From Candidatus Kerfeldbacteria bacterium (lineage in GTDB: Bacteria > Patescibacteriota > Patescibacteriia > UBA10025 > JAHIVO01), in assembly GCA_047946875.1 (NCBI GenBank), contig CP181398.1, forward strand, positions 15,154 to 79,153: 64,000 nucleotides of DNA, in the 5' to 3' direction. This document shows, one piece after another, positions 15,672-61,889 of this stretch. A program made the translations under genes and the position numbers. The notes below the pieces were generated by a model that ran no database searches, was not told the origin of the DNA, and saw only the letters and a program-made list of their open reading frames with translations. Position 1 is the stretch's first letter. The number at the start of each line of letters is the position of its first letter.

Positions 15672-18600
15672 ATGGAGTTTCTTTTTTCAAAAATTAAAAA
15701 AATTAAAATTAAGTATATTTACTATACTTTTGTAATTGTTGTAATTGCTGTTATTGGTATAGAAAAAGTAAATGCTCAATGGGAAATCCCTACTAATTTA
15801 CCACCAGATAGTAATATTTTTGTACCACTAAATGTAGGGCCTTATAAGCAAGCTAAAGAAGGTGGACTATTACTTGATCCATTATTCAATCCTTATGGAG
15901 CTGAGCCAGATATTGATTACTCTCTGGAAGTGAGAGGTAGTCAAGATGCGTATATTAATAATTTTGAAATTATTCCAGGAGGTAAATTAATAGTTGATAC
16001 TGATACTTTGTATGTAGATGGAGAATTTGATCAAGTAGGCATAGGTACATCAACATTTGAATTATCATCAACATTAGAAGTGCATGGTGGGAGTGTAAAT
16101 ATTGGTCAAGAAGGAGTAGGAAACGGAGTAGCGGGAATTGGTTTAACAGTGAATTCAAATACTGAAAGAGAATTAATTATTGCAGATTCTAATAGTAATA
16201 CGGATCCAACAGTTTTTGGTCAAGGTATTATTGATAGTAACGGTAATGGAGTTTATGGATTGAATGTGGCAAATGGAGTGGGTATTTCTGCTATTAGTAA
16301 TGATGCTTCTGCTGTGGTCGGTACGGTTTCATCTGCGTATGATCCAACAGAGCCAATTGTTGTCGCAGGAATATATGGTAATGCAACTGGGCTTGGTGCA
16401 TGGGCGGGATATTTTCAACAAAGGTTATTTGGTACTGGAGAGATCGTAGCAAATAAATTCTTGCCAAATAGATTGCAAAGTTCTGAAGTACCATATACAA
16501 CTGGCTGGAAGAAGAGCGATATTACAGATAGTGAATTAATTGATGTCAATTATATGACATTTGATAGGCAGTATATTTGGGCTTTGGGAGGTTATTGGTC
16601 AAGTATTAATCCAGAACATGTACTTATAATTGATCCAGACAATATGGGGGTGGTTGATAAAATAATACTATCAAATAACGATCATTATTTAGTAGATATT
16701 ATAGATGGCGGTGGGTATATCTGGGTCGCTCACAATTATAACTATGGTAGTAATCATCAGGCAGCGGTTACTAGAATTGATCCAGCTGATGTGCATAATT
16801 TTCAAACAACATATATTTATCCTGATGCTGGTAGTTCTGGTAATAATGATTCAGAATCTGTAAAGTTATTATATGATGATGAAACACTAGATGGGCCTTA
16901 TATTTGGGTGTTGAATAAATTGAATTATGATCCAGTACATTCAATAACTCAATTGGATATGGATGGAAATGTTGTTGTTACCTTTTCTATTAGTGATTTA
17001 GCTAATGGTGGAAATAAATGCTCTAGATATAATAATTATCTATATAGTGACACTGATCATTGTGATGACCGATTAGATAATGATGATGACGGTATAATAG
17101 ATAATGGGTTGTGTGAATATAATGCTCTGACTACTCCCATAGTGACGGATTCGGCTACTTGTGGAATTGCTGGAGGCACTTGGGTAGAAGCTTGCACTGA
17201 TCGGATTTTTGATAATCAGATAGATTGTGAAGCCGGTTCTGCTGTCTGGGCTGAGACGTGTAGCAATAGTTCTTGTTCTGACTCTGATGAATGTACGTTG
17301 TGTGGCGGAGCTGGTGTTTGGGATTCTGTAGGAGAGGTTTGTCCTGCTGATTTGAATTGTAATACTCAAGTAACCTGCGAGGGTACAGTTACTTGTGATG
17401 GTATTTGGACGGCTGGAGATGATCAATGTTTGGCAGATACTCCATTAGGAGTTTGTGCACCAACGATTTCATTAACTACTTGGGGAGAATGTATTAATGC
17501 TGGTGAGACATGGACATGGAACACTGCCTCTGGACCAGCTAATATTGATGAAAGGATAGTAGATGCATATATAGGGGTACCAAGCGGATTAACACTGGAT
17601 GGTGATGGTAATGTCTGGGTAACATTCCGCGGATCACCTGATTGGGATTATAGAGATATATTTTCTGGTGAAGGTTATGCAAAATTTAATGCTTCAGATC
17701 CAGAGTTGGCAGTAGATCAGTATGTATATTGTTCAGGTCCAGAAACTAGTCCAAGTGGAATAGCTTACGATGAATTAAATGATCAAATGTGGATAACGTA
17801 TGATCCATCCACTATGCATGATAATAGAGGTTTATCTAAAGTGGATGTTAGTAATGGCCAAGTAACTGGATTTATATCTGATAATTTTGGAGCACAGATA
17901 AAATATTTTATGGGCTCGCCTAGTGGGCCATCAATATGGATAAATGGAGGAGGTTCTATTATAAAGATTGATCCAGATACTAACGTAGTTGAAAATACTC
18001 GATATATTTATGGACATGATTTTGATTTCGATGAACGTGATCCTGCTAATCCGCAAATTTTAAGGACTACGGGTGATAACGCTGTTATATTGAAACATAC
18101 TATGGAGGATCCATATACTACTTCTACTAATGTTATTCTGGGTGCAAGCTCTGAAAAACTATTATTTGATGGTACAAATATTTGGTCATCTAATTATGGC
18201 ACTAATACTTTGACTAAATATAGTGCTCAAGGGGCAGAAAAATTAGGAGTGTATGATGTGGGTGTAAGTACGGATCAAATGATATCTGATGGGCAAGCTA
18301 TTTGGGTGCCATTTGAGGAATATTGGACAACAAAATATAAACGAATTGATATATTAAATGGTAATGTTGATGAATATGAATTAGTCCCAGATCTTGGAAA
18401 TACACATCATACCCTTGATACCGTATTTGATGGTAAAAATATTTGGCAAAGTGTTTTTTCTGAAGATCGTGAATCGATGATAATTAAAGTAGATTTATCA
18501 AGTTGTGATTTAGCTACAAAACTATGTTCAGTAGGTTCAGTGTTTAATTATCCTGATACATTAGATGGGCCAGAAAAATTGATATTTGATGGAGAATTCA

Positions 18601-21600
18601 TTTGGGCTTTTAATCATCATGAGCCAAAAGTATATAAATTTTCTACAGATCCAATAACGATTGAGGCAGAAATAACAGTTTCTGATATTTTAAGTGCTCC
18701 ATATGTTGATCATCATTATAGTAGGATGAATGCGGTTGAATTTGATGGGACAGATATATGGGTTGGTGCTTATTATACAGATAGTGATGGAAATAGTATT
18801 TATAAATTCAATCCAGAAGGAATAAATAATGATGGCGATCATGGTATCTGCAGTAATGATAGCTCCATAAGTTGTAATTTAACATCAGATTGTGGTGGCA
18901 ATGCTTGTAATGTTGTAATAAATGGTAAATATTCTGTATTAAATATGCCAGGCGAATGTTCTGTCAGTGAGGATAGTTGTATTATGGATTCGGATTGTGG
19001 TGGTTCTGAGACTTGCGATGGTATGTGGACTGGAGTTACTTCCTTAACTTTCGATGGTATTAATATGTGGGCAACTCATGAAGGTTTTGGTGATCATGAT
19101 TCTACTGGAGATGAATGCAAAGATAAATTGGATAATGATGGTAATGGACAGTGTGATTATGATGGAGCAGTAGGCTATCCCGGATGTAGCGGTAAGCCCG
19201 ATCCAGGTTGTAGTGATCCTGATACAGATACTTTAGAAATAACAGGAAGAAATTCGCGATATGAAGGGTCGAATAAAGTATTAACGAGAATCGTTGTTGC
19301 AACTGGCGAAATTGTGGAGAGCGTATCTATTAATCCAATAAAATATAGTAGTACTTATGTATATGATGCTGCTTTTGACGGCCAAAATATTTGGTTGGGA
19401 GGATCTGGTTTTAATGGAAATACCTTGGTACAATTTTATTCTGGAAGTGGATTTAATGATACTGATTATATAAATAATTTAATACTTAGAAATAATATTC
19501 CATTGCTTTCTCAGTATCGACAGGCCGGTAGTTTTGCTATGGCAGGGTCAATGAATATTGGTAATAAATTAATAGTTAAGGGAGACTTAGTTGTCCAAAA
19601 TAATACTTGGGGAGGGGCAGCTGATAATGTGAAGGATTTTGGTGTGGGATGTGATGACGGAGAATTTATGAAGGGTATTGGATTTACAAATGCCGGCGTA
19701 TACACAAGTGAAGTTGATTCTGAAAAAGCTCATGATGTAGCACTTGATTCTACATATATGTATGCTGTTGGTTGGAATTATGATGCTGTGAAATCGTGGC
19801 GCATAGAAAAACGCCTGAAAGCAACTGGAGAATTGGATACTAATTTTGGTTATGACTGTTCATCGGGCTCCTGTAATTTCACGGGAGATGGTGTAATAAT
19901 AGGATACAGTTCAAGTGATATGGCTCAAGCAATTTCAATTGATTCTACATATATGTATGTGGTTGGTAGTAGAGCTTCCAGTAATTGGCGTATAGAAAAA
20001 CGCTTGCTTTCTACCGGAGAGCTTGATTCTGGTTTTGGAGCTGGTGGTGTAATTGAAGGAAATGTTGTTACTGATGATGCTAGGGGTATTTCAATTGATT
20101 CTACATATATGTATGTTGTTGGTGATACTGATGGTGGTGACTGGCGCATAGAAAAACGCCTGCTTTCTACTGGTGCTTTGGATACTAGTTTTGGTTATGA
20201 CTGCTCATCAGCCCCCTGCAATTTTACCGGTGACGGAATTATAACTGGAGATTCTGATAGTCTGTATGCAAGGGATATTGAGATTGATAGTGACTTTATG
20301 TATGTTGTTGGTTGGGATGATGATACGGATAATTATTTGCGTATAGAAAAACGCCTGCTTTCTACCGGAGAACTGGACGCCAGTTTTGGTTCCGGTGGGG
20401 TGATAAATGGGACAATTACCGAAAATCTTGGTTATAGTATTATTCTAGACTCTACATATATGTACATATCGGAATACTTTCCAGCAACTGGTTTGCGCAT
20501 AGAAAAACGCCTGCTTTCTACTGGTGCACTGTGTACGGAAGCTGAATGTGGTCAGGAATTTGGCATAGGCGGGGCAATTATTACATCTTCCTATCCTGGA
20601 CATGATATAGCGGTTGATTCTATGTACATGTATGTGTCAATGTCTTTAAATAATAACTGGCACATAGAAAAACGCCTGCTTTCTACTGGTGCTTTGGACA
20701 CTAGTTTTGGTTATGACTGCTCATCAGGTGTTTGTGCCTTTACTGGAGACGGGATAATATCTGGTTTTACTGAAAGTGATAGGGCTTATGGCATAAAGAT
20801 TGATTCTACATATATGTATGTAGTTGGCGACGATGATATAGGCTACGACTGGCGCATAGAAAAACGCCTGCTCACCACAGGCGCAGTGGCCGCTGAAATA
20901 GACGGTGCAGTGCCTACCGGCATATACACTAGCGATACTACATCCGCTCAGGCTTTTGATATAGCTGTTGATTCTACATATATGTATACAGTTGGTTATA
21001 ATGATGGTGATGACTGGCGCATAGAAAAACGCTTAATTTCTAATGGAATTCTTGATTCTGGATTTGGAACTAGTGGTGTGGTAACAGGGGCCGCTTCTTC
21101 TAGTTTTGCCTATGCTATTGAGATTGATTCTATATATATGTATGTATCAGGACATGATGGATCTAATAACTGGCGCATAGAAAAACGCCTACTTTCTACT
21201 GGAGAACTGGACGCCAGTTTTGGCTATGACTGCTCATCGGGTGTTTGTGCCTTTACTGGAAACGGGATAATATCTGGTTTTGCTGAAAGCAATAGAGCTT
21301 ATGGTATAGACATTGATTCTACGTATATGTATGTGGTTGGTGATACTGATGGAGACGACTGGCGCATAGAAAAACGCCTGCTTTCTACCGGAGAACTGGA
21401 CGCCAGTTTTGATACGGATGGAGTGGTAGCAGGAGATGCTGCTAGTTATCAAGCGTGGGATATTGAGATTGATACTAACTCTATGTATGTTATTGGTTGG
21501 GATGATGATGCAACAAATTATTTGCGCATAGAAAAACGCCTGCTTTCTACTGGTGCTTTGGACACAACCTTTGATACGGATGGAGTGGTAAATGGAACTA

Positions 21601-22151
21601 TTGAGGGTAATTATTTCAACAATATTTCCATTGATTCCAACTATATGTATCTGGCAGGAACATTACAGTTGCCATCAGAGCATTTACGCATAGAAAAACG
21701 CCTGCTTTCTACAGGTGCGCTGTGTACGGCTGCTGAATGTGGTCAGGAATTTGGTACGAATGGTGTAGAAACAGAGGCAGTGGATAGGTATTATTCTACA
21801 ACCGATATTGCCGTTGATCCTACATATATGTATGTGGCTTTTAATTATGGAGCTGTTGGTAGTACTCACTGGCGCATAGAAAAACGTCTGCTTTCCGATG
21901 GTACTTTGGACCCGGGTTTTGGTTATGACTGCTCAACAAATGCTTGCTATTTTACGGGTAATGGCGTAGTAATTGGATCTACATATAGTCAAGTTCCTTA
22001 TGCTATTCAGATTGATTCTACATATATGTATGTAGTTGGTGAAGATGATATAGTCCCTGCTAATCACAACTGGCGTATAGAAAAACGCCTGCTTTCAACT
22101 GGCGGTGTAGCTGTTGGTGAAAGTCAAACACTGATGTGTCGTCCGTTATAA
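15672..22151 (+). CDS. Giant surface protein 2 (2159 aa): paralogous N-terminal module, propeller repeats, Cys-rich DxDxDG modules, and about 17 C-terminal delta-60-like tandem repeats
   Basis: Signal anchor. N-terminus aligns with ORFs 12628 and 22197. Repeats of W-R-I-E-K-R-L-L-S-T-G-x-L-D-x-S-F-G ... D-S-T-Y-M-Y-V-V-G. Confidence 0.75.
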   Translation: MEFLFSKIKKIKIKYIYYTFVIVVIAVIGIEKVNAQWEIPTNLPPDSNIFVPLNVGPYKQAKEGGLLLDPLFNPYGAEPDIDYSLEVRGSQDAYINNFEIIPGGKLIVDTDTLYVDGEFDQVGIGTSTFELSSTLEVHGGSVNIGQEGVGNGVAGIGLTVNSNTERELIIADSNSNTDPTVFGQGIIDSNGNGVYGLNVANGVGISAISNDASAVVGTVSSAYDPTEPIVVAGIYGNATGLGAWAGYFQQRLFGTGEIVANKFLPNRLQSSEVPYTTGWKKSDITDSELIDVNYMTFDRQYIWALGGYWSSINPEHVLIIDPDNMGVVDKIILSNNDHYLVDIIDGGGYIWVAHNYNYGSNHQAAVTRIDPADVHNFQTTYIYPDAGSSGNNDSESVKLLYDDETLDGPYIWVLNKLNYDPVHSITQLDMDGNVVVTFSISDLANGGNKCSRYNNYLYSDTDHCDDRLDNDDDGIIDNGLCEYNALTTPIVTDSATCGIAGGTWVEACTDRIFDNQIDCEAGSAVWAETCSNSSCSDSDECTLCGGAGVWDSVGEVCPADLNCNTQVTCEGTVTCDGIWTAGDDQCLADTPLGVCAPTISLTTWGECINAGETWTWNTASGPANIDERIVDAYIGVPSGLTLDGDGNVWVTFRGSPDWDYRDIFSGEGYAKFNASDPELAVDQYVYCSGPETSPSGIAYDELNDQMWITYDPSTMHDNRGLSKVDVSNGQVTGFISDNFGAQIKYFMGSPSGPSIWINGGGSIIKIDPDTNVVENTRYIYGHDFDFDERDPANPQILRTTGDNAVILKHTMEDPYTTSTNVILGASSEKLLFDGTNIWSSNYGTNTLTKYSAQGAEKLGVYDVGVSTDQMISDGQAIWVPFEEYWTTKYKRIDILNGNVDEYELVPDLGNTHHTLDTVFDGKNIWQSVFSEDRESMIIKVDLSSCDLATKLCSVGSVFNYPDTLDGPEKLIFDGEFIWAFNHHEPKVYKFSTDPITIEAEITVSDILSAPYVDHHYSRMNAVEFDGTDIWVGAYYTDSDGNSIYKFNPEGINNDGDHGICSNDSSISCNLTSDCGGNACNVVINGKYSVLNMPGECSVSEDSCIMDSDCGGSETCDGMWTGVTSLTFDGINMWATHEGFGDHDSTGDECKDKLDNDGNGQCDYDGAVGYPGCSGKPDPGCSDPDTDTLEITGRNSRYEGSNKVLTRIVVATGEIVESVSINPIKYSSTYVYDAAFDGQNIWLGGSGFNGNTLVQFYSGSGFNDTDYINNLILRNNIPLLSQYRQAGSFAMAGSMNIGNKLIVKGDLVVQNNTWGGAADNVKDFGVGCDDGEFMKGIGFTNAGVYTSEVDSEKAHDVALDSTYMYAVGWNYDAVKSWRIEKRLKATGELDTNFGYDCSSGSCNFTGDGVIIGYSSSDMAQAISIDSTYMYVVGSRASSNWRIEKRLLSTGELDSGFGAGGVIEGNVVTDDARGISIDSTYMYVVGDTDGGDWRIEKRLLSTGALDTSFGYDCSSAPCNFTGDGIITGDSDSLYARDIEIDSDFMYVVGWDDDTDNYLRIEKRLLSTGELDASFGSGGVINGTITENLGYSIILDSTYMYISEYFPATGLRIEKRLLSTGALCTEAECGQEFGIGGAIITSSYPGHDIAVDSMYMYVSMSLNNNWHIEKRLLSTGALDTSFGYDCSSGVCAFTGDGIISGFTESDRAYGIKIDSTYMYVVGDDDIGYDWRIEKRLLTTGAVAAEIDGAVPTGIYTSDTTSAQAFDIAVDSTYMYTVGYNDGDDWRIEKRLISNGILDSGFGTSGVVTGAASSSFAYAIEIDSIYMYVSGHDGSNNWRIEKRLLSTGELDASFGYDCSSGVCAFTGNGIISGFAESNRAYGIDIDSTYMYVVGDTDGDDWRIEKRLLSTGELDASFDTDGVVAGDAASYQAWDIEIDTNSMYVIGWDDDATNYLRIEKRLLSTGALDTTFDTDGVVNGTIEGNYFNNISIDSNYMYLAGTLQLPSEHLRIEKRLLSTGALCTAAECGQEFGTNGVETEAVDRYYSTTDIAVDPTYMYVAFNYGAVGSTHWRIEKRLLSDGTLDPGFGYDCSTNACYFTGNGVVIGSTYSQVPYAIQIDSTYMYVVGEDDIVPANHNWRIEKRLLSTGGVAVGESQTLMCRPL
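19690..22150 (+). repeat. In-frame tandem repeat array (about 17 units of about 165-180 bp) encoding delta-60-like repeats
   Basis: Recurring near-identical DNA words tggcgcatagaaaaacgcctgctttctac and gattctacatatatgtatgt. Confidence 0.8.
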
Positions 22152-37400: not shown

Positions 37401-38663
37401 GAAGAAGTTGAAAATCAAACTGATCGTACATTTTTAAGATTTCCGTTCGGACCAGGTACTATCAATGATATATTACCAAATTCAGAAATTAGGAATGCAT
37501 ATCTAAATCTAACGGATGATGGTAATAGTTCTAATGGTCCGTTTGATGCAAAAATATATTTAATTGATTATGGTGATGTGGTTGAATTTACAGTAGCAAA
37601 TTGGCCTGCTCAAGATTTGTACAATGTTAATGTATCTAATGGTATGACTTATAGTATTGATACTAATACTTGGGATAGTACTATAGATTCTGAGAATATG
37701 AGTGTGGATATTAAATCTTTGATTCAGAGGTATGTAAATAGTGATGAATATGGTCAATCTTATGCTGATGGAGATATTACATATCTTGGTCTTGTTATTA
37801 ATGAAGGTGATGCCGACGTTGGAGATTTTAGATCATTCTATTCTCAAGAAGATACTACTGGCCATGCCCCAGAATTAATTGTCGAACATTCACCACGAAG
37901 AACATATTTAACTATTGATCCTTCAAATGTAAATGATGATGTTCACGCTTGGGGTAGCGCTGCGGGTGAATATTCATTAAATTCTAGTTGTCTGTATGTT
38001 GGTAGTTATTCAAATAATCCTAATAGAATTTTCTATCGTTTTATACCAGATACAGCCTATACAATATTACCTGATAATTCTGAAATTATTGAAGCTCATT
38101 TAAGATTAAATAATACTGGTTGTGCGACTGGAACAGAACCTTTTCAAATACGACAAGGATTGTTAAATAAAAATGTAGCGGGAACAACTTTTAATGATAT
38201 GCCTACAATTTCATCTAATCCATATAATTTTGGATTAACTCAAGACGTTTTTGAAGTATCACAAGAGTTATTAGAAAATGAGTTTAATAATTCAAATATT
38301 GTATTAGATGATATCTCAAATTTAGTTCAGTCATGGATAGATGATACTATCGTTAATTATGATTTTGGTAATGATATTGGTTTAAGGTTGCGACGTGGTA
38401 ATAAATCTTCAGAGATTATAAACGGAGCAGGTGAATATAGAGCTGTCAGTGAAGATGCTTCGATTTTGGAAGTTGATTATTTAGTACCATTACAGGTTAG
38501 TGGACTTTTCGTTGCTCGTGGATATAATTTTGATAGAAAGTATACCAAAGATCTTGCTCCGTCCGAAAGGATTGTGTATGATGGTAGGGTAGTAGCAAAT
38601 ACGCCACCCGGACTTGCTGATTTTTCTAAAGCACTTCCAATTTATCAAAGAGTAGCGCCGTAA
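25461..38663 (+). CDS. Giant (4400 aa, 13.2 kb) membrane-anchored surface protein: N-terminal TM, Fn3-like modules, Vgb/NHL-like propeller repeats, Cys-rich modules, delta-60-like repeats and a C-terminal LamG/ConA-like lectin domain
   Basis: N-terminal TM VLIILCVAVVLAAGLFSLIYF. Blades DGTDLWISND, DGQYLWITHNNN, DANIWITNHG. WRIDKRRFDTGALIAAFDTDG-type repeats. LamG-like segment GTWHLNE...FTIEAWVRT...SWHHVAVT...FNGDIDEIRISN. Confidence 0.75.
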   Translation: MSKLTKKSIQVLIILCVAVVLAAGLFSLIYFTQHTPQQKHYVIKEVPPDPETVIDKVVQESGRNYIDKRDDEGNLVFNEDGALTRIFYGADIFYQTEDGDYQDIDTTIVTAQGDYDYENTTNVSKTYFKAETQEDDFIKYEVAGERGVTFSFAGVDKSTPEVSSNTITYPDIYEGIDAKYTISGSKILEELIVEEEPIVDRIDQNIKLQDVYYKEQDNGSITFHDNATGHIVFFAIQPIMYELEESTGFKKQIDESESMEVENLTFSYGLHYEITEADNGDIVISKVIDDEGRKWLEQANYPVAIDFTFSAIDSTVALSGESLRHNWSGTNYYMTTPATISRVGNLNTSVARWYYRSFFSFDTGSEWASYGSSDIVGAKFTFYMWKTGTCSNCAVYDYQGDCRWNTHPCWQHRCGLCTNAGGDVGEESASGISANSGADIWDSLPYHPGGNGFSDAYYNVVMTPEGAVDLNGIPTTQAECSANPDDCKREVFVGIDSVSQTGETQIALFDTSGLTVNEGNWKGVRTFNSGSGALDPTLEVVYMPKFDINVVPLDSDEMLTIEWDDNSDNESGWELQRCIDPTPVDPPFECDDSDYFDANHVSFSPIPTGDSSDSCGTDCTYTCTTTEVETVGGCTIDNDGLESDSLYYYRGRIIHVSDLVSGPTSVWSEDDDGSGYNHEWTRATEILSSVLELSSPVWDSLRIYGGGSPTDAYIDSHVNSNPLHTKYALGVRDEDTWRNCFAEDSGGGIYTFQLPITTNPYTVDFAHNMVWWMTDVFGWQMTAAINVESTDDCQIYPNREFKLCEWAQDTRSPDNYLNTPTSYENCSLDTGKAYSRARDPSPPTFINNDPYGGYFPAITVQMDTTPFSLPVTTLNPSDTEYAMSVTNVNTGKTKFFGDTSDLQEWTMGQPVIPDWGTQFLWNNNNPRTVYNLESATCYKFRAISKNGEPTEVGEVGEDESWGFPDSDEFPSEAEGGFTDDLWSVGYPSEEYCTPLSPPDQPTVTCGFNQEKSIIIKPKVLSQLINDDDKSILSIKTANASVKLADANSEGYYCDVSFTDDINTGTIYYKIQRCARSDIGSCADGDFITVSSNSTLKSFIDESVFPGLACDINNEVYEYRVQADNTIVEPSDWSTVAEDILPPCQPTPAPTANNFQKQTMTFNWTAPLFGSPISGFNSGYYTYLLDSPTDLSPVKRFQSVLFLTTYTPLPSLYTNTPYYFEVSGVDDRSREGVRSPQGGPFYTLADNPNFTVECGYDSSDYCTVDITNHGLNDVENHPPDYCLSRKVGSSSSWRYYNYEKSNWGISGPATCDGQTSDYWRSAKTDYTTSWSLTDYNLTCNTLYTYRIEAKNDVGIVTPSPHEESDTTTICPPLNVRHTYNGYLSGYRIRVAWDNPPPTIPPTLPDEIRIYKDATCGGDYEVMPTGSTETDNSTDPNYGTDASLYANIEKPYSVCYYKDGVLGRPGDGDLNAYTSIQTPTGVSFSSVTKDSMVVNYRGTLTRLSGNSLDFYMSYTNGGSGGSNPSWIPGSYNDTGLSTNYQYCYRVRAKNNETGAYTTGDYTNYGPAGDQDDCKYTLASIPKRPVRSQVDSSTVNVIIREGDGNPHGIGLADDTDYAICVTEYNIDGSVYQEGYVQNNNTVNWLPPPEKCGDSDTGVSWDTRAGWGLDSGVDITGVESSKKFGFSVKARNGDDINTNFGPEATLFLVKNNVVGWAWSANIGWVSLNCLNFFKDQDYGFSCDPGEHWGINTSYEPTRTINPVEGYAWSASGQALKETLSISETTQIGVNAGPKGITYDSETPGGPYVWGVVWASDHILFRLNSVDLTFDTFLIGTAGDDLRDIVLANGYLWITANTTGKLYKVDPANPSGGAVDTLDFETSAFISGCASEDCHPFHIAYDGTDLWISNDVANNEGLIFRVNTNDGLERNCDGTEFSGNNNDRCNLGTTYSGWPFVLNNDVWVVNKLPLGVSKISIADGSISSYPLTTSNPYAIDYDGQYLWITHNNNPGIVTILNPNDGSEVNSFVVGSQLRGIIPFNNSMWVASLGDDTVIQLDPYTQSVVDTYNVGDEPWELTTDNDANIWITNHGLSKNVSKINLSDESVKVGLGWISLNKAVCSNDSQQGCTDDDECGVVTDLCVDTPAEEVSEDIIVAGDPPSGDVAYGFCYDNDAPSSGEKYGECSKTTGQSCTESDLANCLDIEEYCIYYTCQTGDICIDPVSPPSPAGWVKECRDTATANFNGETREIEGWARILSSKKQGEQYTPPFDDWGWIKLGGQYDDGEGNTGDYNLAGTEIDSQLFLGDPDVSGDSLSLYTIFGWGWNADISDYTATSDWLPSINISNNFAARRGLERVHNSAMILDSNGDPHIAWEVFDTVHLYYDIYYLKLVAGKWFTISGVEYQPGAMDPFGSMLSVGYGSGLYDDGRHIRFPSLALGADDYPHLAGAYEESVWRGSQNEGGDIIYTKWNGSQWTSSDGVTSGYDVVGGEASDDDHAQVPILKLNDSDVPNIVYRVGISGYGDIYFKVWDGRIWNTIDGTSDSLNVSNITNSSSVTPKLIMDGNTPHIVYIDSGLAKYRWWDGTNWVSAGLDEPFDTYVCSNNFLTSCTEATEQADCGWYCHDNSVNAGNLCSVDIDCGTDYWAQCLHNRCESEDVAVNWGLKTCNGFVDGTKCYDDDDCPVSLDCQKLSNIEWNVYGTEAASFDLYDESTPGVVFRGSTGIYYLRWDSTIDNGDGTFGAWVSVSGGDLESSDLVISNAGGRAGRVPSVIIGDDNYPRIIWGEEISNLSDITYKQWDGSQWQTIDGIASPLPPAPPNVANQSAYISETPAVQSYSPSVQLDRFGNPHALWSEINYSGYSCGEFGNGGVIDGIDGDIHDIEIDYDNNAIYLAGVSDDGGVPHWRIDKRRFDTGALIAAFDTDGFINGDADTLSAWNIELDKDNNNFYIVGRESVGDDWRLERRNMDTGSIDWPDNPSGVVRMGYGNATDGIDLKIDSENIYITGVDDSDNWRIEKRSKNNGNLVTNFGTDGFIISTDGNNAKKILIDDTYMWVVGQDDNLHWRIEKRLLSNGDLVTTFGNAGIFTGSSTNPDSGNIYDVTIDGDNIYIVGKTTDNNWLTAKLDINSGILDEDFGVDGYVETSYASAVNFIYGIEVSGDDIIIAGSLGDGLDNDWHYEIRNKNTGIINEIVVNNGWQNGLIDSVNGSLVWGMDGDDDYMYIFGNDDSGNWRIERRWKSTGTLDNHYNTNAFSDCKDPEYPMCIYTSPSFECLGGDIFYSRWTPGNVQGGIGWVEFMPAGALLGVPWVQTAFADIFGTEGVSLSPPPRGSGEYTATYLILSNGSIEGIPTYYYGDSSRQPSTQFYEGGLNPLIEGSSLPFGEDALSKINVDALVSGPDFNRYGHPLTTVTQSGIDISDSSQLGDSPLLNGGVYHYIGNASIDDEMTFIIGDSDPTPATDPETTGNGLIVIDGDLEINANTYYEAGVLADITEMPSVGLIVRGNIYISPFVTELAGVFVALDNPDTADISEGIISTSRKSPLITETADNDDAYVSVIGSDYDNTNQTVPDNESLKFGKEVADIGNYQFRLKATLNTNLLGVTSTEPNIPIMVRVGDVGTAPFDDFWLNNSDDINGYDINFADADGTPLDFHIEKFENNQEIIVWVQVPQLDINSLNDYIWMYYGSVSPVSQQDENGTYNSEYVGTWHLNETSGDRHNSTSTISIDGVPSASLANEPGGIAAGADKFDGTGGTLDNGYCFEGLNTGGVNNLCRYDIDCEDPAGTLCTDVQGGSNPGGCMVPDPTGSYLEMPINILSGAGNFTIEAWVRTSTTDNLVTIIEQRDENNAGDGSYQLRIYNGIELHFYYWQYFPGISFSISANDSNLNNGSWHHVAVTINNTNDEAILYIDGVAEATRIDMTDIIDIDAENSTYVGADISNTGGHGWPCYKVDSYFNGDIDEIRISNTVRSAEYIQATYLAENGSSSFITWGTQEEVENQTDRTFLRFPFGPGTINDILPNSEIRNAYLNLTDDGNSSNGPFDAKIYLIDYGDVVEFTVANWPAQDLYNVNVSNGMTYSIDTNTWDSTIDSENMSVDIKSLIQRYVNSDEYGQSYADGDITYLGLVINEGDADVGDFRSFYSQEDTTGHAPELIVEHSPRRTYLTIDPSNVNDDVHAWGSAAGEYSLNSSCLYVGSYSNNPNRIFYRFIPDTAYTILPDNSEIIEAHLRLNNTGCATGTEPFQIRQGLLNKNVAGTTFNDMPTISSNPYNFGLTQDVFEVSQELLENEFNNSNIVLDDISNLVQSWIDDTIVNYDFGNDIGLRLRRGNKSSEIINGAGEYRAVSEDASILEVDYLVPLQVSGLFVARGYNFDRKYTKDLAPSERIVYDGRVVANTPPGLADFSKALPIYQRVAP
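34070..35170 (+). repeat. Degenerate delta-60-like tandem repeats within the 4400-aa gene
   Basis: About 6-7 units with motif Y(I/M)xG...DNWRIEKR...G.LD..FG. Confidence 0.6.
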
Positions 38664-55162: not shown

Positions 55163-56654
55163 ACTTTTAAAAAATCAGCAAGGTTCAATTCTGTTATATT
55201 CTTTAATTGTAATTTCTATAATTTCAGCGATATCTATAATCGTATCTATTATTGTGGTTAATCAGATTAAGCTAACAAGTGGAGCTGCTAATGGTACACA
55301 GGCATACTATGCTGCCGAAGCTGGTATTGAGAAAGGTTTGTTTGCAGTTCGTTCGATGAGAGATGACCCTGATTTTTATTTAGAAGAACCATTAGAATTA
55401 AATTATTCGGCTATTAATATTATAAAAGGTTACTCTGACAGTAGCTTTGTAAATAAAGCTTCGTTTGATATATCACAGGCCGCAGCGGTTACTCCAAAGA
55501 TTGAAAATCAAGAAATCAAAGAAAATGAATCTGTGCAAATTGATTATTATGATGTAGACGATCCATTACGAGTAGATCCATTAACTCCAGAAGTTGTAAG
55601 TTTGACTATTCAGAACTCAGGAGATAATCCGGCGTCATGGGCCGAAGTATCTTGGACGGCTTGGGATAATCAAGGAGAATTGTTGACTTCAACTTCAGCA
55701 AGAAGAGTTATTGGTCCATCTGATTTGTCTAGAGTGAATGGCTGGCCAATAAATGATTTAGATGTATTTGAGGATGATGCAGTAGGATACAGAGTAAGAA
55801 TCAAAGCGTTAAAAGCGATACCTACAGATACAGAGCCTGGCGATTTGTCGAGTGTTACGGTTACTCCATATGACGGAGATGGAGATGAAATTTTTGATTT
55901 ACCATCACAAGTGGTTATTAAATCCATTGGAGAAAGGGGAGGTTTTAAGCAATCTCTTGTAGCTTCAGTTCCATGGAAATTGCCATTGTTCGGATTGTAT
56001 GATTATGTATTGTTTAGTGAAAGTGATATTTACAAGGATATTATTCTTAATGCTCCAACCTATAGTTCTGGGGTTATTCAGGTGGAAGCGGATATCCAGG
56101 GACTTTTTGGAACCTGCGAGAGTTGTAGTGCCTGCGAGAGTTTTGGCTGGAACGGATTAGATTGTCCTCTTCAACCACTTGGCGCGGATATACGTTGCGC
56201 AGACCAATCATCTTTTGGTGCGATTTGTAAATTAGCTGCTGATAATAGTGATAATGCTTTGGGATTCATTTTACCAGTTCCTGATAATGTACCGGAGGGA
56301 GATGAGTATTATGTATCAATAAAAGCAACTTACTTTGGATGTGATGAAGTTCCTGCCATCGATTGTGGTAGAGATATTGCTGTAGAAATAAATGGACAGT
56401 CAGTAGTTGTTAGCGATCAGGTACCATCTGGAGATCAGACAGATCATATCTGTACAATTCCTATTAGTTTCTCATTGGGTGATCCGACACTACCGGAGGA
56501 TGACAGCAGCCGAACGATTAAATTTACTGTTCATCCATATGGGTCAGCTACTGGTACCTCGGGAGTTGATCCAGGCGAATGGCATGATAGTGAATATGTT
56601 TTAGCTGATTGGTATCAGCTCAGTACTTATAAAATGTTTGATGATTGTTATTAA
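55152..56654 (+). CDS. PilX-like pilus tip or assembly protein
   Basis: Hydrophobic N-terminus followed by the PilX_N-like motif AYYAAEAGIEKG; 500 aa. Confidence 0.55.
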   Translation: MNYKLLKNQQGSILLYSLIVISIISAISIIVSIIVVNQIKLTSGAANGTQAYYAAEAGIEKGLFAVRSMRDDPDFYLEEPLELNYSAINIIKGYSDSSFVNKASFDISQAAAVTPKIENQEIKENESVQIDYYDVDDPLRVDPLTPEVVSLTIQNSGDNPASWAEVSWTAWDNQGELLTSTSARRVIGPSDLSRVNGWPINDLDVFEDDAVGYRVRIKALKAIPTDTEPGDLSSVTVTPYDGDGDEIFDLPSQVVIKSIGERGGFKQSLVASVPWKLPLFGLYDYVLFSESDIYKDIILNAPTYSSGVIQVEADIQGLFGTCESCSACESFGWNGLDCPLQPLGADIRCADQSSFGAICKLAADNSDNALGFILPVPDNVPEGDEYYVSIKATYFGCDEVPAIDCGRDIAVEINGQSVVVSDQVPSGDQTDHICTIPISFSLGDPTLPEDDSSRTIKFTVHPYGSATGTSGVDPGEWHDSEYVLADWYQLSTYKMFDDCY

Positions 56655-58684
56655 TGGATATGGGTATCAAGGAAGTACAACAAAGAATAGAGAAACTGAA
56701 AAAAGAGATAAATCACCATCGTTATCTTTATCACGTTTTGGATAAGCAAGAAATATCTGACGCTGCTTTGGATTCTCTGAAGCATGAACTTGATCAATTA
56801 GAAAAAGAAAATCCTGAGTTAATAACCCTAGACTCACCTACGCAACGTGTTAGTGGTCAGGCGATGGATAAATTTACAAAAGTCGCTCATCAAACAAGGA
56901 TGGTATCATTAACTGATGCTTTTTCATTTTCTGAGATTGAAGATTGGGAAAAAAGAAATAAGAAATTGTTAACCTCTTCAGAAAAATTAGATTATTATGC
57001 AGAACTGAAGATGGATGGTTTGGCAATGTCTCTAATATACAAAGATGGTAAGTTGGTAAAAGGTGTTACGAGAGGGGATGGAAAAATTGGTGAAGATGTA
57101 ACAAGTAATATAAGAACTATTGAAGCAATACCATTAATATTAAATAATAATAAATTAAAGCTAAATATCCCAAGTGAAGTAGAGGTGAGAGGTGAGGTTT
57201 ATATGCTTAAGTCTGTTTTTGATAAGTTGAATAAAGAACAAGAAAGCAATAATCAATCTAAGTTTGCTAATCCACGTAATGCAGCGGCTGGTTCTATTCG
57301 TCAACTTGATTCAAAAATTGCTGCTTCTAGGGAGCTTAGTTTTATGGCTTATGACTTAGTTACAGATTTTAGTCAGAAGACTCATCAAGAATCACATGAG
57401 CTATTAGAAAAAATTGGTTTTAGATCAGGCATGATTCATAATAAGCATTGTAATAATGTTAATGAAGTGCAAAAACATTTTGAAGATATTGGTAAACTTA
57501 GAAATGGATTAAAATTTTGGACTGATGGGGTGGTAGTAAATATTAATAATATTGAAACATATAAAAAACTTGGAATAGTAGGAAAAGCGCCTCGAGGTTC
57601 TATTGCTTACAAATATCCAGCAGAGCAAGCAACTACTATAGTTGAAGATATTCAAGTGCAGGTAGGTAGGACAGGAGCATTAACCCCGGTTGCTCATTTG
57701 AAGCCTGTGCAAGTAGCTGGTTCTACTGTGGCGCGTGCTACATTACATAATATAGATGAAATAGAGAGGTTGGGTGTGAGAATTGGGGATACTGTTATTA
57801 TTCAGAAAGCTGGTGATATTATACCTGATGTTGTAGAAGTACTACCAAAATTACGAACAGGAAAAGAAAAGAAATATAAAATGCCTACACATTGTCCCGT
57901 ATGTAATGCCAAGGTGAATAGAAAAGAAGGAGAAGTAGCATATTATTGTGATAATAAAGATTGCTATGCTTTACAACATCAATCTATGAAGCATTTTATT
58001 TCCAAGAAAGCGTTTGATATTGATGGGTTGGGACCTAGAGTATTAGATCAATTGTTTAAAGCAGATCTTATTAAAACACCAGCAGATCTTTTTGATTTAA
58101 AAATAGAAGATTTACAACCATTAGAAAGATTTGCAGATAAATCGGCAGAGAATTTGGTAGAGTCAATTAAAGATGCTAAAAAAATTTCATTAGCAAAATT
58201 TATTTATGCTCTTGGTATTCGTCACGTAGGAGAGGAGACGGCGATCACATTATCGCAGGAATACAAAACATTTGGTAAAATAATCAATATTCCTCTTAAA
58301 AAATTGGAAGCATTGAATGATATTGGTGGGGTTGTTGCAAAAAGTATTAATGAATATTTTCAAAATAAGGCAAATATTGATCTGGTAAATAAATTATTAA
58401 ATAAAGTTACAATTATTAAAGAAGTTAAAAAGATTCTATCGGACTTAAATACGAAGTTGGTAGATAAAAAAATAGTTGTTACAGGAATACTAGAAAGTAT
58501 GTCGCGTGACGAAGCTAAAGAGCAGATAAGAAGAGCGGGAGGTAAGTGGGTTTCATCAGTTTCAAAAAATACGGATTTCGTAGTAGCAGGAGATAAACCT
58601 GGGTCAAAAGTTGATAAAGCAAAGAAGTTGGGGATTAATGTGATTTCAGAAGAAGAATTTAAAAAATTGTTTAATCCAAAATAA
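56645..58684 (+). CDS. ligA: NAD-dependent DNA ligase
   Basis: KMDG adenylation motif, four-Cys zinc finger (CPVCNAKV...CDNKDC), HhH and C-terminal BRCT; 679 aa. Confidence 0.95.
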   Translation: MLLMDMGIKEVQQRIEKLKKEINHHRYLYHVLDKQEISDAALDSLKHELDQLEKENPELITLDSPTQRVSGQAMDKFTKVAHQTRMVSLTDAFSFSEIEDWEKRNKKLLTSSEKLDYYAELKMDGLAMSLIYKDGKLVKGVTRGDGKIGEDVTSNIRTIEAIPLILNNNKLKLNIPSEVEVRGEVYMLKSVFDKLNKEQESNNQSKFANPRNAAAGSIRQLDSKIAASRELSFMAYDLVTDFSQKTHQESHELLEKIGFRSGMIHNKHCNNVNEVQKHFEDIGKLRNGLKFWTDGVVVNINNIETYKKLGIVGKAPRGSIAYKYPAEQATTIVEDIQVQVGRTGALTPVAHLKPVQVAGSTVARATLHNIDEIERLGVRIGDTVIIQKAGDIIPDVVEVLPKLRTGKEKKYKMPTHCPVCNAKVNRKEGEVAYYCDNKDCYALQHQSMKHFISKKAFDIDGLGPRVLDQLFKADLIKTPADLFDLKIEDLQPLERFADKSAENLVESIKDAKKISLAKFIYALGIRHVGEETAITLSQEYKTFGKIINIPLKKLEALNDIGGVVAKSINEYFQNKANIDLVNKLLNKVTIIKEVKKILSDLNTKLVDKKIVVTGILESMSRDEAKEQIRRAGGKWVSSVSKNTDFVVAGDKPGSKVDKAKKLGINVISEEEFKKLFNPK

Positions 58685-58716
58685 AAAAGGAGTCTATTTT
58701 AAAGACTCCTTGTTAA
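58682..58716. terminator. Bidirectional terminator hairpin between convergent ligA and the minus-strand orphan gene
   Basis: Stem aaggagtct/agactcctt, flanked by an A-run on + (a T-run on minus). Confidence 0.55.
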
Positions 58717-58719
58717 AAA

Positions 58720-59724
58720 TTAGAATGGACATTGGGTGACTGAACTTTTGGTGATCTCGGGATCAAAAATCAAACGAGTTTTTCTTTCTTTTGGTGAGAG
58801 TTTTCTCCATTCGGAAATCATCATCTCAACCAAATGGGATAATTCTTCAAAACTTCCATATATATTGCGGAATTCGAAGTTTGTATAATTATCATGACCA
58901 GAGAAGGTAATAAAATGACCATTGGAACCTATTAAGGCTATCGTATATTGCCCCAATGCGGTCCAGACAAGCAAGGTTATATCATGGAATTGTGCTTTTA
59001 AACCAGAACAGATGCGTTTTTTCTCATGATCAATCATAATCTGTTTTGCTCCAGCAGTATATACCTGTTGGGCAAAACGATTTGTGAGCGTTTCTATCAT
59101 GTCTTTGAGTTTGACCATACGTGGCTCATTGTTTTGCCATGCTTGGATAGCTAGGTCAAAAACATCAAAAACTACATTGGAAAATAGATCCGTTTGGTTG
59201 AGCAGCTTTTTCCAGCCTTGCTTTGGTTTTTGGTATATGACAATTTCAATTTTATTGTCAATAAACTCCCCAATATATTTCCCTTCCTCGATCATATTAT
59301 TTGTAGGACTTTTAAACCAATTTTGAACCTGTACCCAGATGATTGAATCGAGAATATCTAAATCAACACCTTGAAGATAATCAATAATGTAAGAGTGGCT
59401 ATTTTCAGGACTCCATTTTACTGTCTTGATAATTTGGTTTTTTGAACCGGCCAAGACTACAGAGTTTTTTACCGATGATCTTTGGCCTCGGCGTTCAGGA
59501 TTATCATTATCTGGTCTAGGCTCAATGGTGTCAGAGAAAATTTCATTATTTCCGTTCTTATCTTTTTTTACCCAGAGAAATAATGTTTCAGCATCAGTTC
59601 GTTGAACTTTGATGCAAATACCTGGATCATTATCACGAGAATCGTAAATTTGTTCTAGGATTTTTACCAGGATTGGAAACTGTTTTAAAAGTTTATTCCT
59701 TTTTTGTTTAGGTTGAGACTTCAT
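58720..59724 (-). CDS. Orphan hypothetical protein (334 aa). GC about 37%, above the local background
   Basis: Long ORF with a good RBS (aaggag about 7 nt before ATG) and no recognisable motifs. Confidence 0.55.
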   Translation of the reverse strand: MKSQPKQKRNKLLKQFPILVKILEQIYDSRDNDPGICIKVQRTDAETLFLWVKKDKNGNNEIFSDTIEPRPDNDNPERRGQRSSVKNSVVLAGSKNQIIKTVKWSPENSHSYIIDYLQGVDLDILDSIIWVQVQNWFKSPTNNMIEEGKYIGEFIDNKIEIVIYQKPKQGWKKLLNQTDLFSNVVFDVFDLAIQAWQNNEPRMVKLKDMIETLTNRFAQQVYTAGAKQIMIDHEKKRICSGLKAQFHDITLLVWTALGQYTIALIGSNGHFITFSGHDNYTNFEFRNIYGSFEELSHLVEMMISEWRKLSPKERKTRLIFDPEITKSSVTQCPF

Positions 59725-59740
59725 ACGAAGGCTCCTTTCT

Positions 59741-59805
59741 TCACTTTTTCAGCGTTCCGCTGATATGGATTGGTTTCAATTTACAACTAGCGTTCCGCTA
59801 GTCAA
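59741..59805 (-). promoter_or_regulatory. Candidate promoter (-35 agtcaa at 59800-59805, -10 aattta at 59778-59783 on +, i.e. TTGACT...TAAATT on minus) with two related palindromic operator-like sites
   Basis: Palindromes tcagcgttccgctga (59741-59755) and ctagcgttccgctag (59787-59801), centres about 46 bp apart. One overlaps the promoter spacer and one lies in the 5' UTR. Confidence 0.4.
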
Positions 59806-59866
59806 GTGTTAAAGTGCAAAGTTGATATAAATTACCATTTAAACAACTATTTTGTCAATAAAAAAT

Positions 59867-59926
59867 CCCCAGGCTGTCCAAAATTGAGACACGGATGTGT
59901 TCAAAAATTGGACAATATGCCTGGGG
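59867..59926. other. Large imperfect stem-loop (15 paired bases in two stem segments) in the divergent intergenic region. On the minus strand it is followed by a T-run
   Basis: Arms ccccaggctgtccaa and ttggacaatatgcctgggg. Confidence 0.4.
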
Positions 59927-59982
59927 GAGGGGGTTTGTGAGTAAGAGAATTTACTCAAATTTCTATTATATATAGTTAAAGC

Positions 59983-60010
59983 AAAAAGGCTAAACATTAT
60001 TAGCCTTTTT
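59983..60010. terminator. Bidirectional intrinsic-terminator-like hairpin that belongs to no flanking CDS
   Basis: Stem aggctaa/ttagcct, with an A5 run before and a T5 run after. Confidence 0.45.
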
Positions 60011-60138
60011 AACTTCCTATAATTATAGGTAAATAAAAGATCAGAATATAATATATCCTATAAAATATCGAGAGTCAAAACGTGCAAAGTGGATTATAGT
60101 ATTTGTTTTTGGTTATTAAAAATGATATAATTTCTTAT

Positions 60139-60426
60139 ATGATACTAAAGTTAAATGAAATAGAAAGGTTGGCAAAGCTAGCCAGAATTAATTTAACAGA
60201 AGCTGAGAAGAAGAAGTTTGGTAAACAAATTTCTTCGGTTTTAGAATATGTTGAACAAATTAAAGAAGTTGATACTTCTAAAGTAAAAGAAAAATCTCAT
60301 CTAAAAGATTTGGATAATGTTTTTAGGGAGGATAAAATTTTAGAAAGCACTGAATCAAAAAACAGTATTGAACAATTTCCTGATAAGGCAGGAAATCTTA
60401 ATAAAGTTAAAGCAGTGATGGAATAA
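60139..60426 (+). CDS. gatC: Asp/Glu-tRNA amidotransferase subunit C
   Basis: MILKLNEIERLAKLARINLTEAEKKKF...VDTSKV matches the GatC family. The ORF track begins at 60103, but the upstream codons overlap a TGnTATAAT promoter-like element at 60124-60132. Confidence 0.75.
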   Translation: MILKLNEIERLAKLARINLTEAEKKKFGKQISSVLEYVEQIKEVDTSKVKEKSHLKDLDNVFREDKILESTESKNSIEQFPDKAGNLNKVKAVME

Positions 60427-60428
60427 AT

Positions 60429-61889
60429 ATGGATTATAATAAATTAAATATTGAAGAAGCCGCAAAGGGTTTGCAAGAGAAAAAGTTTTCAGCTAGTGAA
60501 TTAGTTGATTCTTGTTTTGAGCAGATAAATAAATATGATAATGAGATAGGGGCATTTTTAGAAATATCAAAAGATCTAGCAATAGAGCAAGCTAAAGAGG
60601 CGGATAAAAAAATATCAAAAGGAGATAAAGGTTTATTAACAGGAGTACCATTATCAATTAAAGATATTATATTAGTTAAAGATGTTAAAGCAACAGGCGG
60701 TTCTAAGATTTTAGAAAATTATATTGCCACTTATGATGCTACAGTTATAAAAAAATTGAAAGATGAAGGAGCGATATTCTTAGGTAAGGTTAATCTAGAC
60801 GAATTTGCTATGGGATCTTCAACTGAAAATTCTGCTTATAAAAAAACTAAAAATCCTTGGGATAAAGAGAGAGTACCTGGCGGTTCATCAGGGGGATCAA
60901 CTTCTTCTGTGGCTGCTGATATGTGTCTAGGATCTCTCGGTACTGATACGGGAGGATCTATTCGACAACCAGCTTCATTTTGTGGGGTAGTAGGGCTTAA
61001 ACCAACATATGGTCGCGTATCGAGGTATGGAGTAATGCCAATGACCTCTTCATTGGATCAAGTAGGTCCAATCACAAAAACGGTGAAAGATGCTGCAATA
61101 TTATTTAATGCGATCGCTGGTATTGACCCAAATGATTCTACTACTTATAAAAAAGAAAATATTAACATTGATAATATTACTAAAGATATAAAGGGCTTAA
61201 AGATTGGTATACCAAAAGAATATTTTATTGAGGGTATGGACCCTGAAGTACAAAAGAGTATCGATCAAGCTATCAAACAGTTTGAAGAATTGGGGGCTAA
61301 GGTAGTAAAAGTAAGCTTACCTTTAACGAAACATGCTTTAGCAATTTATTATATTATGGCAAGTTCAGAAATATCATCAAATTTAGCAAAATACGATGGT
61401 ATTAGATATGGATATTCTGCAACTAAGGACACGGCTGAAAATTTATTGGATGTTTATGTGAATTCACGTTCGAAAGGTTTAGGTAGTGAAGCTAAGCGTA
61501 GAATAATGATGGGGACATATTCTTTGTCGTCAGGATACTATGATCAGTATTATATTAAAGCCCAAAAAGTAAGAGTATTGATTCAGGAAGAATTCAATAA
61601 TATTTTTAAGAAAGTTGATTGCCTTATTTCACCTACGACTCCTTCTACTGCTTTTAAAATTGGAGAAAAATTTGAAGATCCTTTAATGATGTATCTTTCA
61701 GATATATATACAGTACCAGCAAATATAGGAGGCATTTGCGGAATATCAATTCCAGCTGGAATGTCTAATAATTTACCAATTGGATTGCAAATTATGGGTA
61801 AGTCATTTGATGAGGAGATGATATTACGGGCTGGTTATAATTTCGAAAAAGTAACGGATTGGCATACAAAAAGACCAAGTTTAGATTGA
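60429..61889 (+). CDS. gatA: Asp/Glu-tRNA amidotransferase subunit A (amidase family)
   Basis: Amidase signature GGSSGGS and catalytic Ser-cisSer-Lys context; 486 aa. Confidence 0.95.
   Translation: MDYNKLNIEEAAKGLQEKKFSASELVDSCFEQINKYDNEIGAFLEISKDLAIEQAKEADKKISKGDKGLLTGVPLSIKDIILVKDVKATGGSKILENYIATYDATVIKKLKDEGAIFLGKVNLDEFAMGSSTENSAYKKTKNPWDKERVPGGSSGGSTSSVAADMCLGSLGTDTGGSIRQPASFCGVVGLKPTYGRVSRYGVMPMTSSLDQVGPITKTVKDAAILFNAIAGIDPNDSTTYKKENINIDNITKDIKGLKIGIPKEYFIEGMDPEVQKSIDQAIKQFEELGAKVVKVSLPLTKHALAIYYIMASSEISSNLAKYDGIRYGYSATKDTAENLLDVYVNSRSKGLGSEAKRRIMMGTYSLSSGYYDQYYIKAQKVRVLIQEEFNNIFKKVDCLISPTTPSTAFKIGEKFEDPLMMYLSDIYTVPANIGGICGISIPAGMSNNLPIGLQIMGKSFDEEMILRAGYNFEKVTDWHTKRPSLD

Follow-up and report, generated by a model that had tools for sequence, protein, structure and literature searches.

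Two short inverted repeats lie upstream of an open reading frame (ORF) of 334 amino acids between ligA and gatC in a Candidatus Kerfeldbacteria genome (contig CP181398.1), and the question they raise is whether they act as DNA or as RNA. The stretch analyzed, here called the window, is 64,000 nt long. A preliminary description of it took the repeats for DNA operators in a tight-repression arrangement, one overlapping a promoter and the other next to the ribosome binding site of an orphan gene, for which a toxic, defensive or addiction-like role was proposed. As judged by comparing the window with related loci, the repeats are RNA hairpins, P1 and P2, of a conserved 5′ leader. The features around the start of the gene are as follows, in window coordinates.

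58720..59724, minus strand: ORF of 334 aa with an ATG start, from the ORF list
59732-59736, minus strand: Shine-Dalgarno (SD) sequence AGGAG, with a 7-nt spacer to the ATG, read from the sequence
59749-59763: inverted repeat TCAGCG-TTC-CGCTGA, with 6-nt arms and a 3-nt center
59787-59801: inverted repeat CTAGCG-TTC-CGCTAG, with 6-nt arms and a 3-nt center
59749..59763, minus strand: hairpin P2 of the leader RNA, UCAGCG-GAA-CGCUGA, 12 nt upstream of the SD
59786..59802, minus strand: hairpin P1 of the leader RNA, ACUAGCG-GAA-CGCUAGU, identical to the family consensus for P1
59769..59828, minus strand: match to covariance model R1 (P0-like region, P1 and linker; 22.1 bits, E=5.8e-4)
59829..59858, minus strand: probable promoter, TTGACA at 59858-59853, an 18-nt spacer, and TGgTAATTT at 59837-59829 (-10 at 59834-59829), read from the sequence

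Hairpins P1 and P2 in the 5′ leader

The two repeats have AGCGTTCCGCT in common, so the shared core of the preliminary description is there; they are not, however, perfect over 15 bp, since 6-nt arms flank a 3-nt center, and the second is 12 nt from the SD rather than adjacent to it. Their similarity is unlikely to be fortuitous. The 11-mer core occurs exactly twice in the 64 kb, and with up to one mismatch there are three matches against 0.12 expected, a number reached in none of 100 shuffles. The third match, at 28672, is within an ORF of 4400 aa and forms no hairpin. Inverted repeats of this 6-3-6 form that are rich in G+C number only 11 in the whole window. Within this stretch, the sites noted earlier are thus real and not random.

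Related loci were collected by exact-protein lookup (L001, L004, L005, L081, L082, L084 and L085) and by scanning metagenomes with a protein pattern taken from a 10-sequence sub-alignment (L006-L026). Tandem hairpins are present at every family locus with enough upstream sequence, about 40 in all, with proteins down to approximately 20% identity. They were found at 19 of 19 loci from the metagenome scan, at L001, L004 and L005, and at the nearest relatives of the window, L081, L082, L084 and L085. The common layout runs from a sigma70 promoter, through a variable hairpin P0 a few nucleotides farther on (at most loci), to P1, a linker, P2, the SD, and the start codon. The consensus sequences are ACUAGCG-GAA-CGCUAGU for P1 and CUACG-GAA-CGUAG for P2, and what is invariant across the family is a pair of hairpins capped by C-R-[RAA]-Y-G. 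Loop variants include GGAAC, GGAAU, AGAAC (8 of 35 P2 hairpins), AAAAU (P1 of L018 and P2 of L085) and GGAAA. Stem sequence is also conserved, beyond pairing alone.

Some features are clade-specific. In the major clade, the 3′ arm of P2 continues into the SD (CUACGGAACGUAGGAG; GUAGGAG), and P1 is followed by a U-rich UUCUUU, which is missing from the clade of the window. The window P2 and its long linker (with GAAACCAA) match the variant seen in its nearest relatives. In L082 this takes the form CUAACGGAACGUUAA-19 nt-UCGGCGGAACGCCGA, with a P2 of UCGGCG-GAA-CGCCGA that carries a compensatory change from A-U to G-C relative to the window. A subclade of four loci (L017, L024, L064 and L070) has an additional 5′ hairpin (GAUCGAGGUGUUCUCGAAUC) upstream of P0.

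RNAalifold predicted both P1 and P2 de novo from 34 leaders. The model alignment of 35 leaders has 92.9% of its cells paired, with compensatory changes at 13 of 18 pairs, a result matched by none of 500 shuffles; slid controls are 18–45% paired, and for P1 the corresponding values are 97.5% and six of eight pairs. Covariance model R1 was trained on 34 leaders from other loci, the window being left out. It scores true leaders at 45–88 bits, including 57.5 bits for L015, which lies outside the model. Its match in the window is the only one in the 64 kb below E=0.01, and the only other is the P2 hairpin, scored as P1-like (10.6 bits, E=0.65). Because R1 detects the window's own subclade weakly, this was aligned separately. 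Here 96.4% of cells are paired and 6 of 12 pairs are compensatory, and P2 is 100% paired, with compensatory changes in four of its six pairs. The leader is also the slower-changing part of the locus: over 30 loci its core is 75% identical in nucleotides, against 50% amino acid identity for the proteins, and where two proteins share less than 40% identity their leader cores still share 71%.

Departures from Watson-Crick pairing distinguish RNA from DNA here. In P1 there are 46 G·U cells and no A·C cells, and overall the counts are 68 and 21. Since G·U is tolerated in P1 but A·C is not, selection acts on the sense-strand RNA and not on a strand-symmetric DNA palindrome; in an operator bound by a dimeric repressor, G·T and A·C departures should be tolerated alike. 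The element thus has what is generally seen in a structured cis-regulatory RNA of the 5′ untranslated region (UTR): it lies between promoter and start codon, keeps its strand relative to the gene, has covarying helices, and is consistently associated with the family gene. To this extent the dedicated regulatory element anticipated in the preliminary description does exist, as a conserved leader found with the family gene.

The promoter is also conserved. By a strict criterion, a TTGACA-like -35 and a TAnnnT -10 ending at the model start are found in 22 of 35 leaders, with weaker versions visible in most others, and a strong promoter of the TTGACA-17-TAnnnT type just upstream of P0 is seen in the four nearest relatives as well. 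Lying upstream of both hairpins, this conserved promoter means that both are transcribed; in the window it would probably place them in a 5′ UTR of approximately 98 nt. The promoter proposed earlier, TTGACT-16-TAAATT, does exist at 59805..59778 (9 of 12 consensus positions) and overlaps P1. As a promoter it is not convincing, since such matches occur at chance frequency (8 found, 7.2 ± 2.5 in shuffles) and this one is not seen in any of the four nearest relatives (L081, L082, L084 and L085).

Distribution and the associated protein family

The specificity of the motif was examined with a DNA-pattern scan (half of P1, the linker and P2) of one genome per species in 185,579 species. It returned 51 matches, against approximately 35 expected by chance from an information-content estimate. 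Seventeen of these have the full motif, and all 17 precede a family member on the same strand (hmmsearch E from 1e-84 to 1e-109). The remaining 34 are without the 5′ arm of P1 and without a family gene, and the covariance model either gives them no more than 18 bits or misses them altogether. The hosts include Saccharibacteria, Moraniibacteriota, Paceibacterota, Giovannonibacteria and other Patescibacteria, together with two metagenome-assembled genomes (MAGs) labeled Bdellovibrionales and two labeled only “bacterium.” The two MAGs labeled “uncultured Bdellovibrionales” (L060 and L071) have the full leader and gene, and all other named hosts are Patescibacteria; these two could reflect mis-binning, or transfer outside the Candidate Phyla Radiation (CPR).

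Searched against Rfam 15, neither the window leader nor those of 10 related loci had a match at E≤1, and a scan of the whole window at Rfam gathering thresholds returned three tRNAs only. No description of the motif was found in the published literature. Comparative evidence therefore strongly supports an uncatalogued leader associated one-to-one with an uncharacterized Patescibacterial protein family.

NCBI annotates the 334-aa product, which comes from a Candidatus Kerfeldbacteria MAG, as a hypothetical protein. Its description as an orphan holds solely for word-index homology searches, which gave almost no matches with either the protein or the family profile; a search of genome contigs with the single window protein also returned no loci, nor did an exact lookup of its sequence in the contig index. 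An exhaustive phmmer search of 1.84 billion cluster representatives gave 86 clusters at E≤1e-3, of which 23 reach E≤1e-10; nearly all are proteins of 300–330 aa that align end to end at 20–30% identity. By these alignments the gene is not an orphan, being a member of a family in Patescibacteria without known domains. That the protein has no recognizable domain was correctly noted before: Pfam, PADLOC, NCBIfam, PHROGs and PDB profile searches gave no significant match. The Pfam 3′-5′ exonuclease family DNA_pol_A_exo1 was considered and rejected, the window protein scoring 12.3 bits (E=0.15), under the 23.6-bit gathering threshold, and none of 74 family members matching.

The structure prediction suggested in the preliminary description gave a confident AlphaFold2 model from the family alignment (predicted local distance difference test score, pLDDT, of 91; predicted template modeling score, pTM, of 0.87). 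It did not lead to a known fold. Neither the full model nor residues 121-334 predicted separately (pLDDT 91.9) had a Foldseek match in PDB at E<1e-3, with template modeling (TM) scores of approximately 0.2–0.3 or lower. In BFVD there was one marginal match, A0A1P8DIX0, a viral protein without a name (E=9e-4, TM-score 0.50 on the target, 216 columns).

A role as a toxin, defense gene or addiction module, as proposed earlier, finds no support here. No family in the PADLOC-DB v2 defense models matched the window protein at E≤10, the gene is not in a defense-island context, no copies were found in phage, plasmid or IMG/VR collections, and no conserved neighbor or partner gene family was found around the family loci.

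Possible modes of action

The leader may serve as a platform with two binding sites, recognized by a trans-acting factor that would, when bound at P2, block access of the 30S subunit to the SD and so repress translation. The near-identical hairpin tops, the position of P2 at the SD, the tolerance of loop changes and the conservation of stem sequence all fit such a platform. The most parsimonious factor would be the encoded protein, as a dimer or as two cooperating monomers; this is the most economical choice because the motif has been seen before no other gene, linked partner genes are lacking, and transfer has left the leader attached to the ORF. Autogenous feedback of this type would keep the circuit self-contained as the cassette moves between hosts. 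Translational control through the two hairpins by a trans-acting factor, probably the gene's own product, is put forward here tentatively as the most likely mechanism, with confidence a little short of even.

A parallel may be drawn with the thrS operator and threonyl-tRNA synthetase of E. coli and with ribosomal-protein leaders. In such autogenous operators a dimeric protein binds two hairpins. These too have a gene-specific 5′ leader with two similar hairpins near the SD, conserved beyond the coding sequence, and by analogy the product would be expected to bind its own mRNA and block the 30S subunit. Unlike those systems, the present leader shows no mimicry of a stable RNA, for which an E. 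coli rrn operon served as proxy; rRNA mimicry was set aside as a candidate when no C-R-RAA-Y-G hairpin was found there. A fourU-like thermometer, in which the linker would pair with the SD, was likewise rejected, as the linker differs between clades without a compensating change in the SD.

Several points weigh against control by the gene's own product. Foldseek gave no known RNA-binding fold, with hints of clamp, Whirly and p32 folds that were insignificant; invariant polar residues are few in the family (such as D44 of an R-A-D motif); and its median isoelectric point of 6.2 is mildly acidic. In the window the 12 nt between P2 and the SD make occlusion less obvious than in the major clade, and the transcription start was placed from the promoter consensus alone. 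The covariation counts ignore phylogeny, although the changes are seen in several independent clades. An exclusive tie to one gene family of unknown function is also described for some riboswitch candidates, for example yjdF (PMC4793209).

This last point bears on the foremost alternative, that the leader is a small tandem-hairpin riboswitch like guanidine-II (mini-ykkC), in which ligand-dependent interactions between the loops would alter access to the SD. In its favor are two short tandem covarying hairpins, conserved loop nucleotides, a variable linker, a second hairpin beside the SD, and an RNA more conserved than the protein, and gene-specific orphan candidates such as yjdF provide a precedent. 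The details correspond less well. Guanidine-II loops are an invariant ACGR tetraloop on a C-G pair, whereas those here are GAA or AAA triloops (RRAAY pentaloops, also on a C-G pair), variable in the ways listed above and not self-complementary. Conserved unpaired nucleotides are very few, the linker differs by clade without a covarying anti-SD, and no alternative expression-platform pairing is conserved. The gene downstream belongs to a single uncharacterized family instead of encoding guanidine carboxylases or transporters, and cmscan did not report RF01068 or any other Rfam match. A riboswitch is considered unlikely on this evidence.

The hairpins might also bind a host-encoded global post-transcriptional regulator, either CsrA/RsmA-like or another RNA-binding protein, or a small RNA. 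A CsrA target classically presents GGA in two hairpin loops, one of them at the SD, as is seen here, and a highly conserved partner would explain the high conservation of the RNA. The invariant GGA core (A(N)GGA) of CsrA/RsmA sites is not kept, however: it is lost to AGA in eight of 35 P2 hairpins (AGAAC) and to AAA in P1 of L018 and P2 of L085 (AAAAU). Whole hairpins are conserved, and solely before this one gene family, with no further copies in the 64 kb; and because the cassette moves between distant CPR lineages, the same factor would be needed in every host. Regulation of this type is accordingly quite unlikely.

Another role linked to the protein would be as the RNA partner in a system like type III toxin-antitoxin (TA) pairs (ToxIN/CptIN), or as a 5′ stabilizer or processing signal of the mRNA. 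The locus does resemble a type III TA unit in being compact and mobile, with a repeated structured RNA directly before a single stand-alone protein gene and one strong promoter, and the UUCUUU after P1 in the major clade could be read in this light. Type III antitoxins, though, are arrays of 34–45-nt direct repeats with a terminator before the ORF of a ToxN/AbiQ-like endoribonuclease, and here there are two hairpins of approximately 15 nt in units that are dissimilar beyond an 11–12-nt core, with no terminator between RNA and ORF. The protein is not ToxN-like and has no similarity to AbiE, other PADLOC models, or folds of the Kid/MazF type. For stabilizer hairpins, conserved loops would be unneeded, and the U-rich tract is missing in the clade of the window. 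Either role is very unlikely.

DNA operators for a repressor, the original proposal, are hardly credible: both window sites are perfect inverted repeats in their arms and one overlaps a promoter-like match, but departures across homologous leaders are not strand-symmetric, matches of that kind occur at chance frequency and this one is not conserved in the nearest relatives, the consensus promoter is upstream of both hairpins at most loci, and no regulator gene is linked.

Gene regulation in the CPR, whose members are ultra-small bacteria, is almost unexplored and most CPR proteins are unannotated, which gives the leader some wider interest. It has strong covariation support, more than 40 representatives and no Rfam match, it has so far been seen almost only in Patescibacteria, and it is tied one-to-one to a protein family with a confident predicted structure and no known relatives. 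It is possible, if doubtful, that leader and protein form a self-contained RNA-protein module specific to the CPR, in which a protein whose fold has no relative detected in PDB recognizes the pair of RAA-triloop hairpins in its own mRNA, or else that the leader represents a new class of mini-riboswitch of the guanidine-II type. In either case the result would be an RNA-ligand pair that is new and open to experiment, from bacteria whose regulation is hardly characterized; in the first, the protein would count as an RNA-binding domain not known before, with a recognition element both defined and very small. So small an element, defined by sequence (the C-R-RAA-Y-G hairpins), makes binding of protein or ligand easy to test, and the outcome would give the family its first function.

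Insertion between ligA and gatC

The gene was placed by the preliminary description between ligA and gatCA and antisense to its neighbors, which is how it lies, and was suggested to be horizontally acquired. The features that bear on this are the following.

56645-58684, plus strand: ligA, to which the ORF is antisense
60139-61889, plus strand: gatC/gatA, to both of which the ORF is antisense
58684..58714, minus strand: intrinsic terminator hairpin of the cassette gene, AAGGAGTCT..AGACTCCTT then TTTTTATTTT (minus-strand T-run), from terminator and inverted-repeat scans
58689..59856: inserted cassette of approximately 1.18 kb (terminator, ORF, leader and promoter), delimited by synteny with L078, L079 and L080

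In the three loci used for comparison, L078, L079 and L080, LigA is 82, 73 and 70% identical to that of the window, and the gene order is the same: type IV pilin genes, a 500-aa protein, ligA, gatC, gatA, a response regulator and NDK. In all three gatC comes straight after ligA, with gaps of 320, 102 and 917 bp respectively and no family member. The limits of the insertion can be read from L078. There a CCCCAGG...CCTGGGG hairpin follows the ligA stop codon; in the window its counterpart lies beyond the cassette, at 59867-59940. Window positions 59953-60133 align at 85% with the L078 segment immediately before gatC. From this displaced ancestral hairpin and the flanking alignment, the insert spans approximately 58689-59856, and it contains exactly a terminator, ORF, leader and promoter. 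The terminator hairpin, although now directly after the ligA stop codon, is within the inserted segment.

A 9-nt direct repeat, AATAAAAAA, flanks the cassette at 58680-58688 and 59857-59865 and is present as a single copy in L078. Duplication of a target site or microhomology might account for it, but a 9-mer rich in A is no more than suggestive where the genome itself is AT-rich.

Base composition adds to the evidence from synteny, although not in the way first described. The G+C content of the ORF, given earlier as approximately 37% against 30% for its surroundings, is actually 35.6%, compared with 33.1% over the whole window. An equal or higher value is seen in 29% of 1-kb windows, so that total G+C was rejected as evidence of horizontal transfer. 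The genuine anomaly is at third codon positions (GC3), where the ORF has 0.322 against a mean of 0.21 (standard deviation 0.05, 41 ORFs), the top value among the real ORFs of the window. The sole ORF with higher GC3 (1091-1405; G+C 45%, GC3 0.46) is a spurious frame overlapping a tRNA-Ser(tga) gene at 1198-1287 on the minus strand. Together, synteny and GC3 support horizontal acquisition of the gene and its leader as a single-gene cassette. It is a clean natural example of a promoter-leader-ORF-terminator unit moved, and recently so, into a housekeeping interval.

A tRNA gene, of various identities, lies within approximately 750 nt of the family gene in 10 of 34 loci (L001, L004, L006, L007, L009, L010, L035, L039, L070 and L072). 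By a rough estimate this is several-fold over the expectation from tRNA density, which hints at preferential insertion beside tRNA genes.

The ancestral elements between ligA and gatC are the long hairpin CCCCAGGC...GCCTGGGG followed by GAGGGGGTTT (59867-59940) and a second hairpin, AAAAAGGCTAA/TTAGCCTTTTT (59983-60010), which in L078 precedes gatC; the cassette insertion moved both away from ligA. The interval is variable in the lineage, and the 917 bp of L080 hold an unrelated minus-strand ORF of 73 aa. L080 also has a GIY-YIG ORF inserted after gatA. Elsewhere in the window there are two giant plus-strand ORFs, of 2159 aa (15672-22151) and 4400 aa (25461-38663). A different 15-nt inverted repeat, AACTGGACGCCAGTT, occurs at 20371, 21205 and 21394, all inside the 2159-aa ORF (15672..22151), and is probably a repeated coding module.

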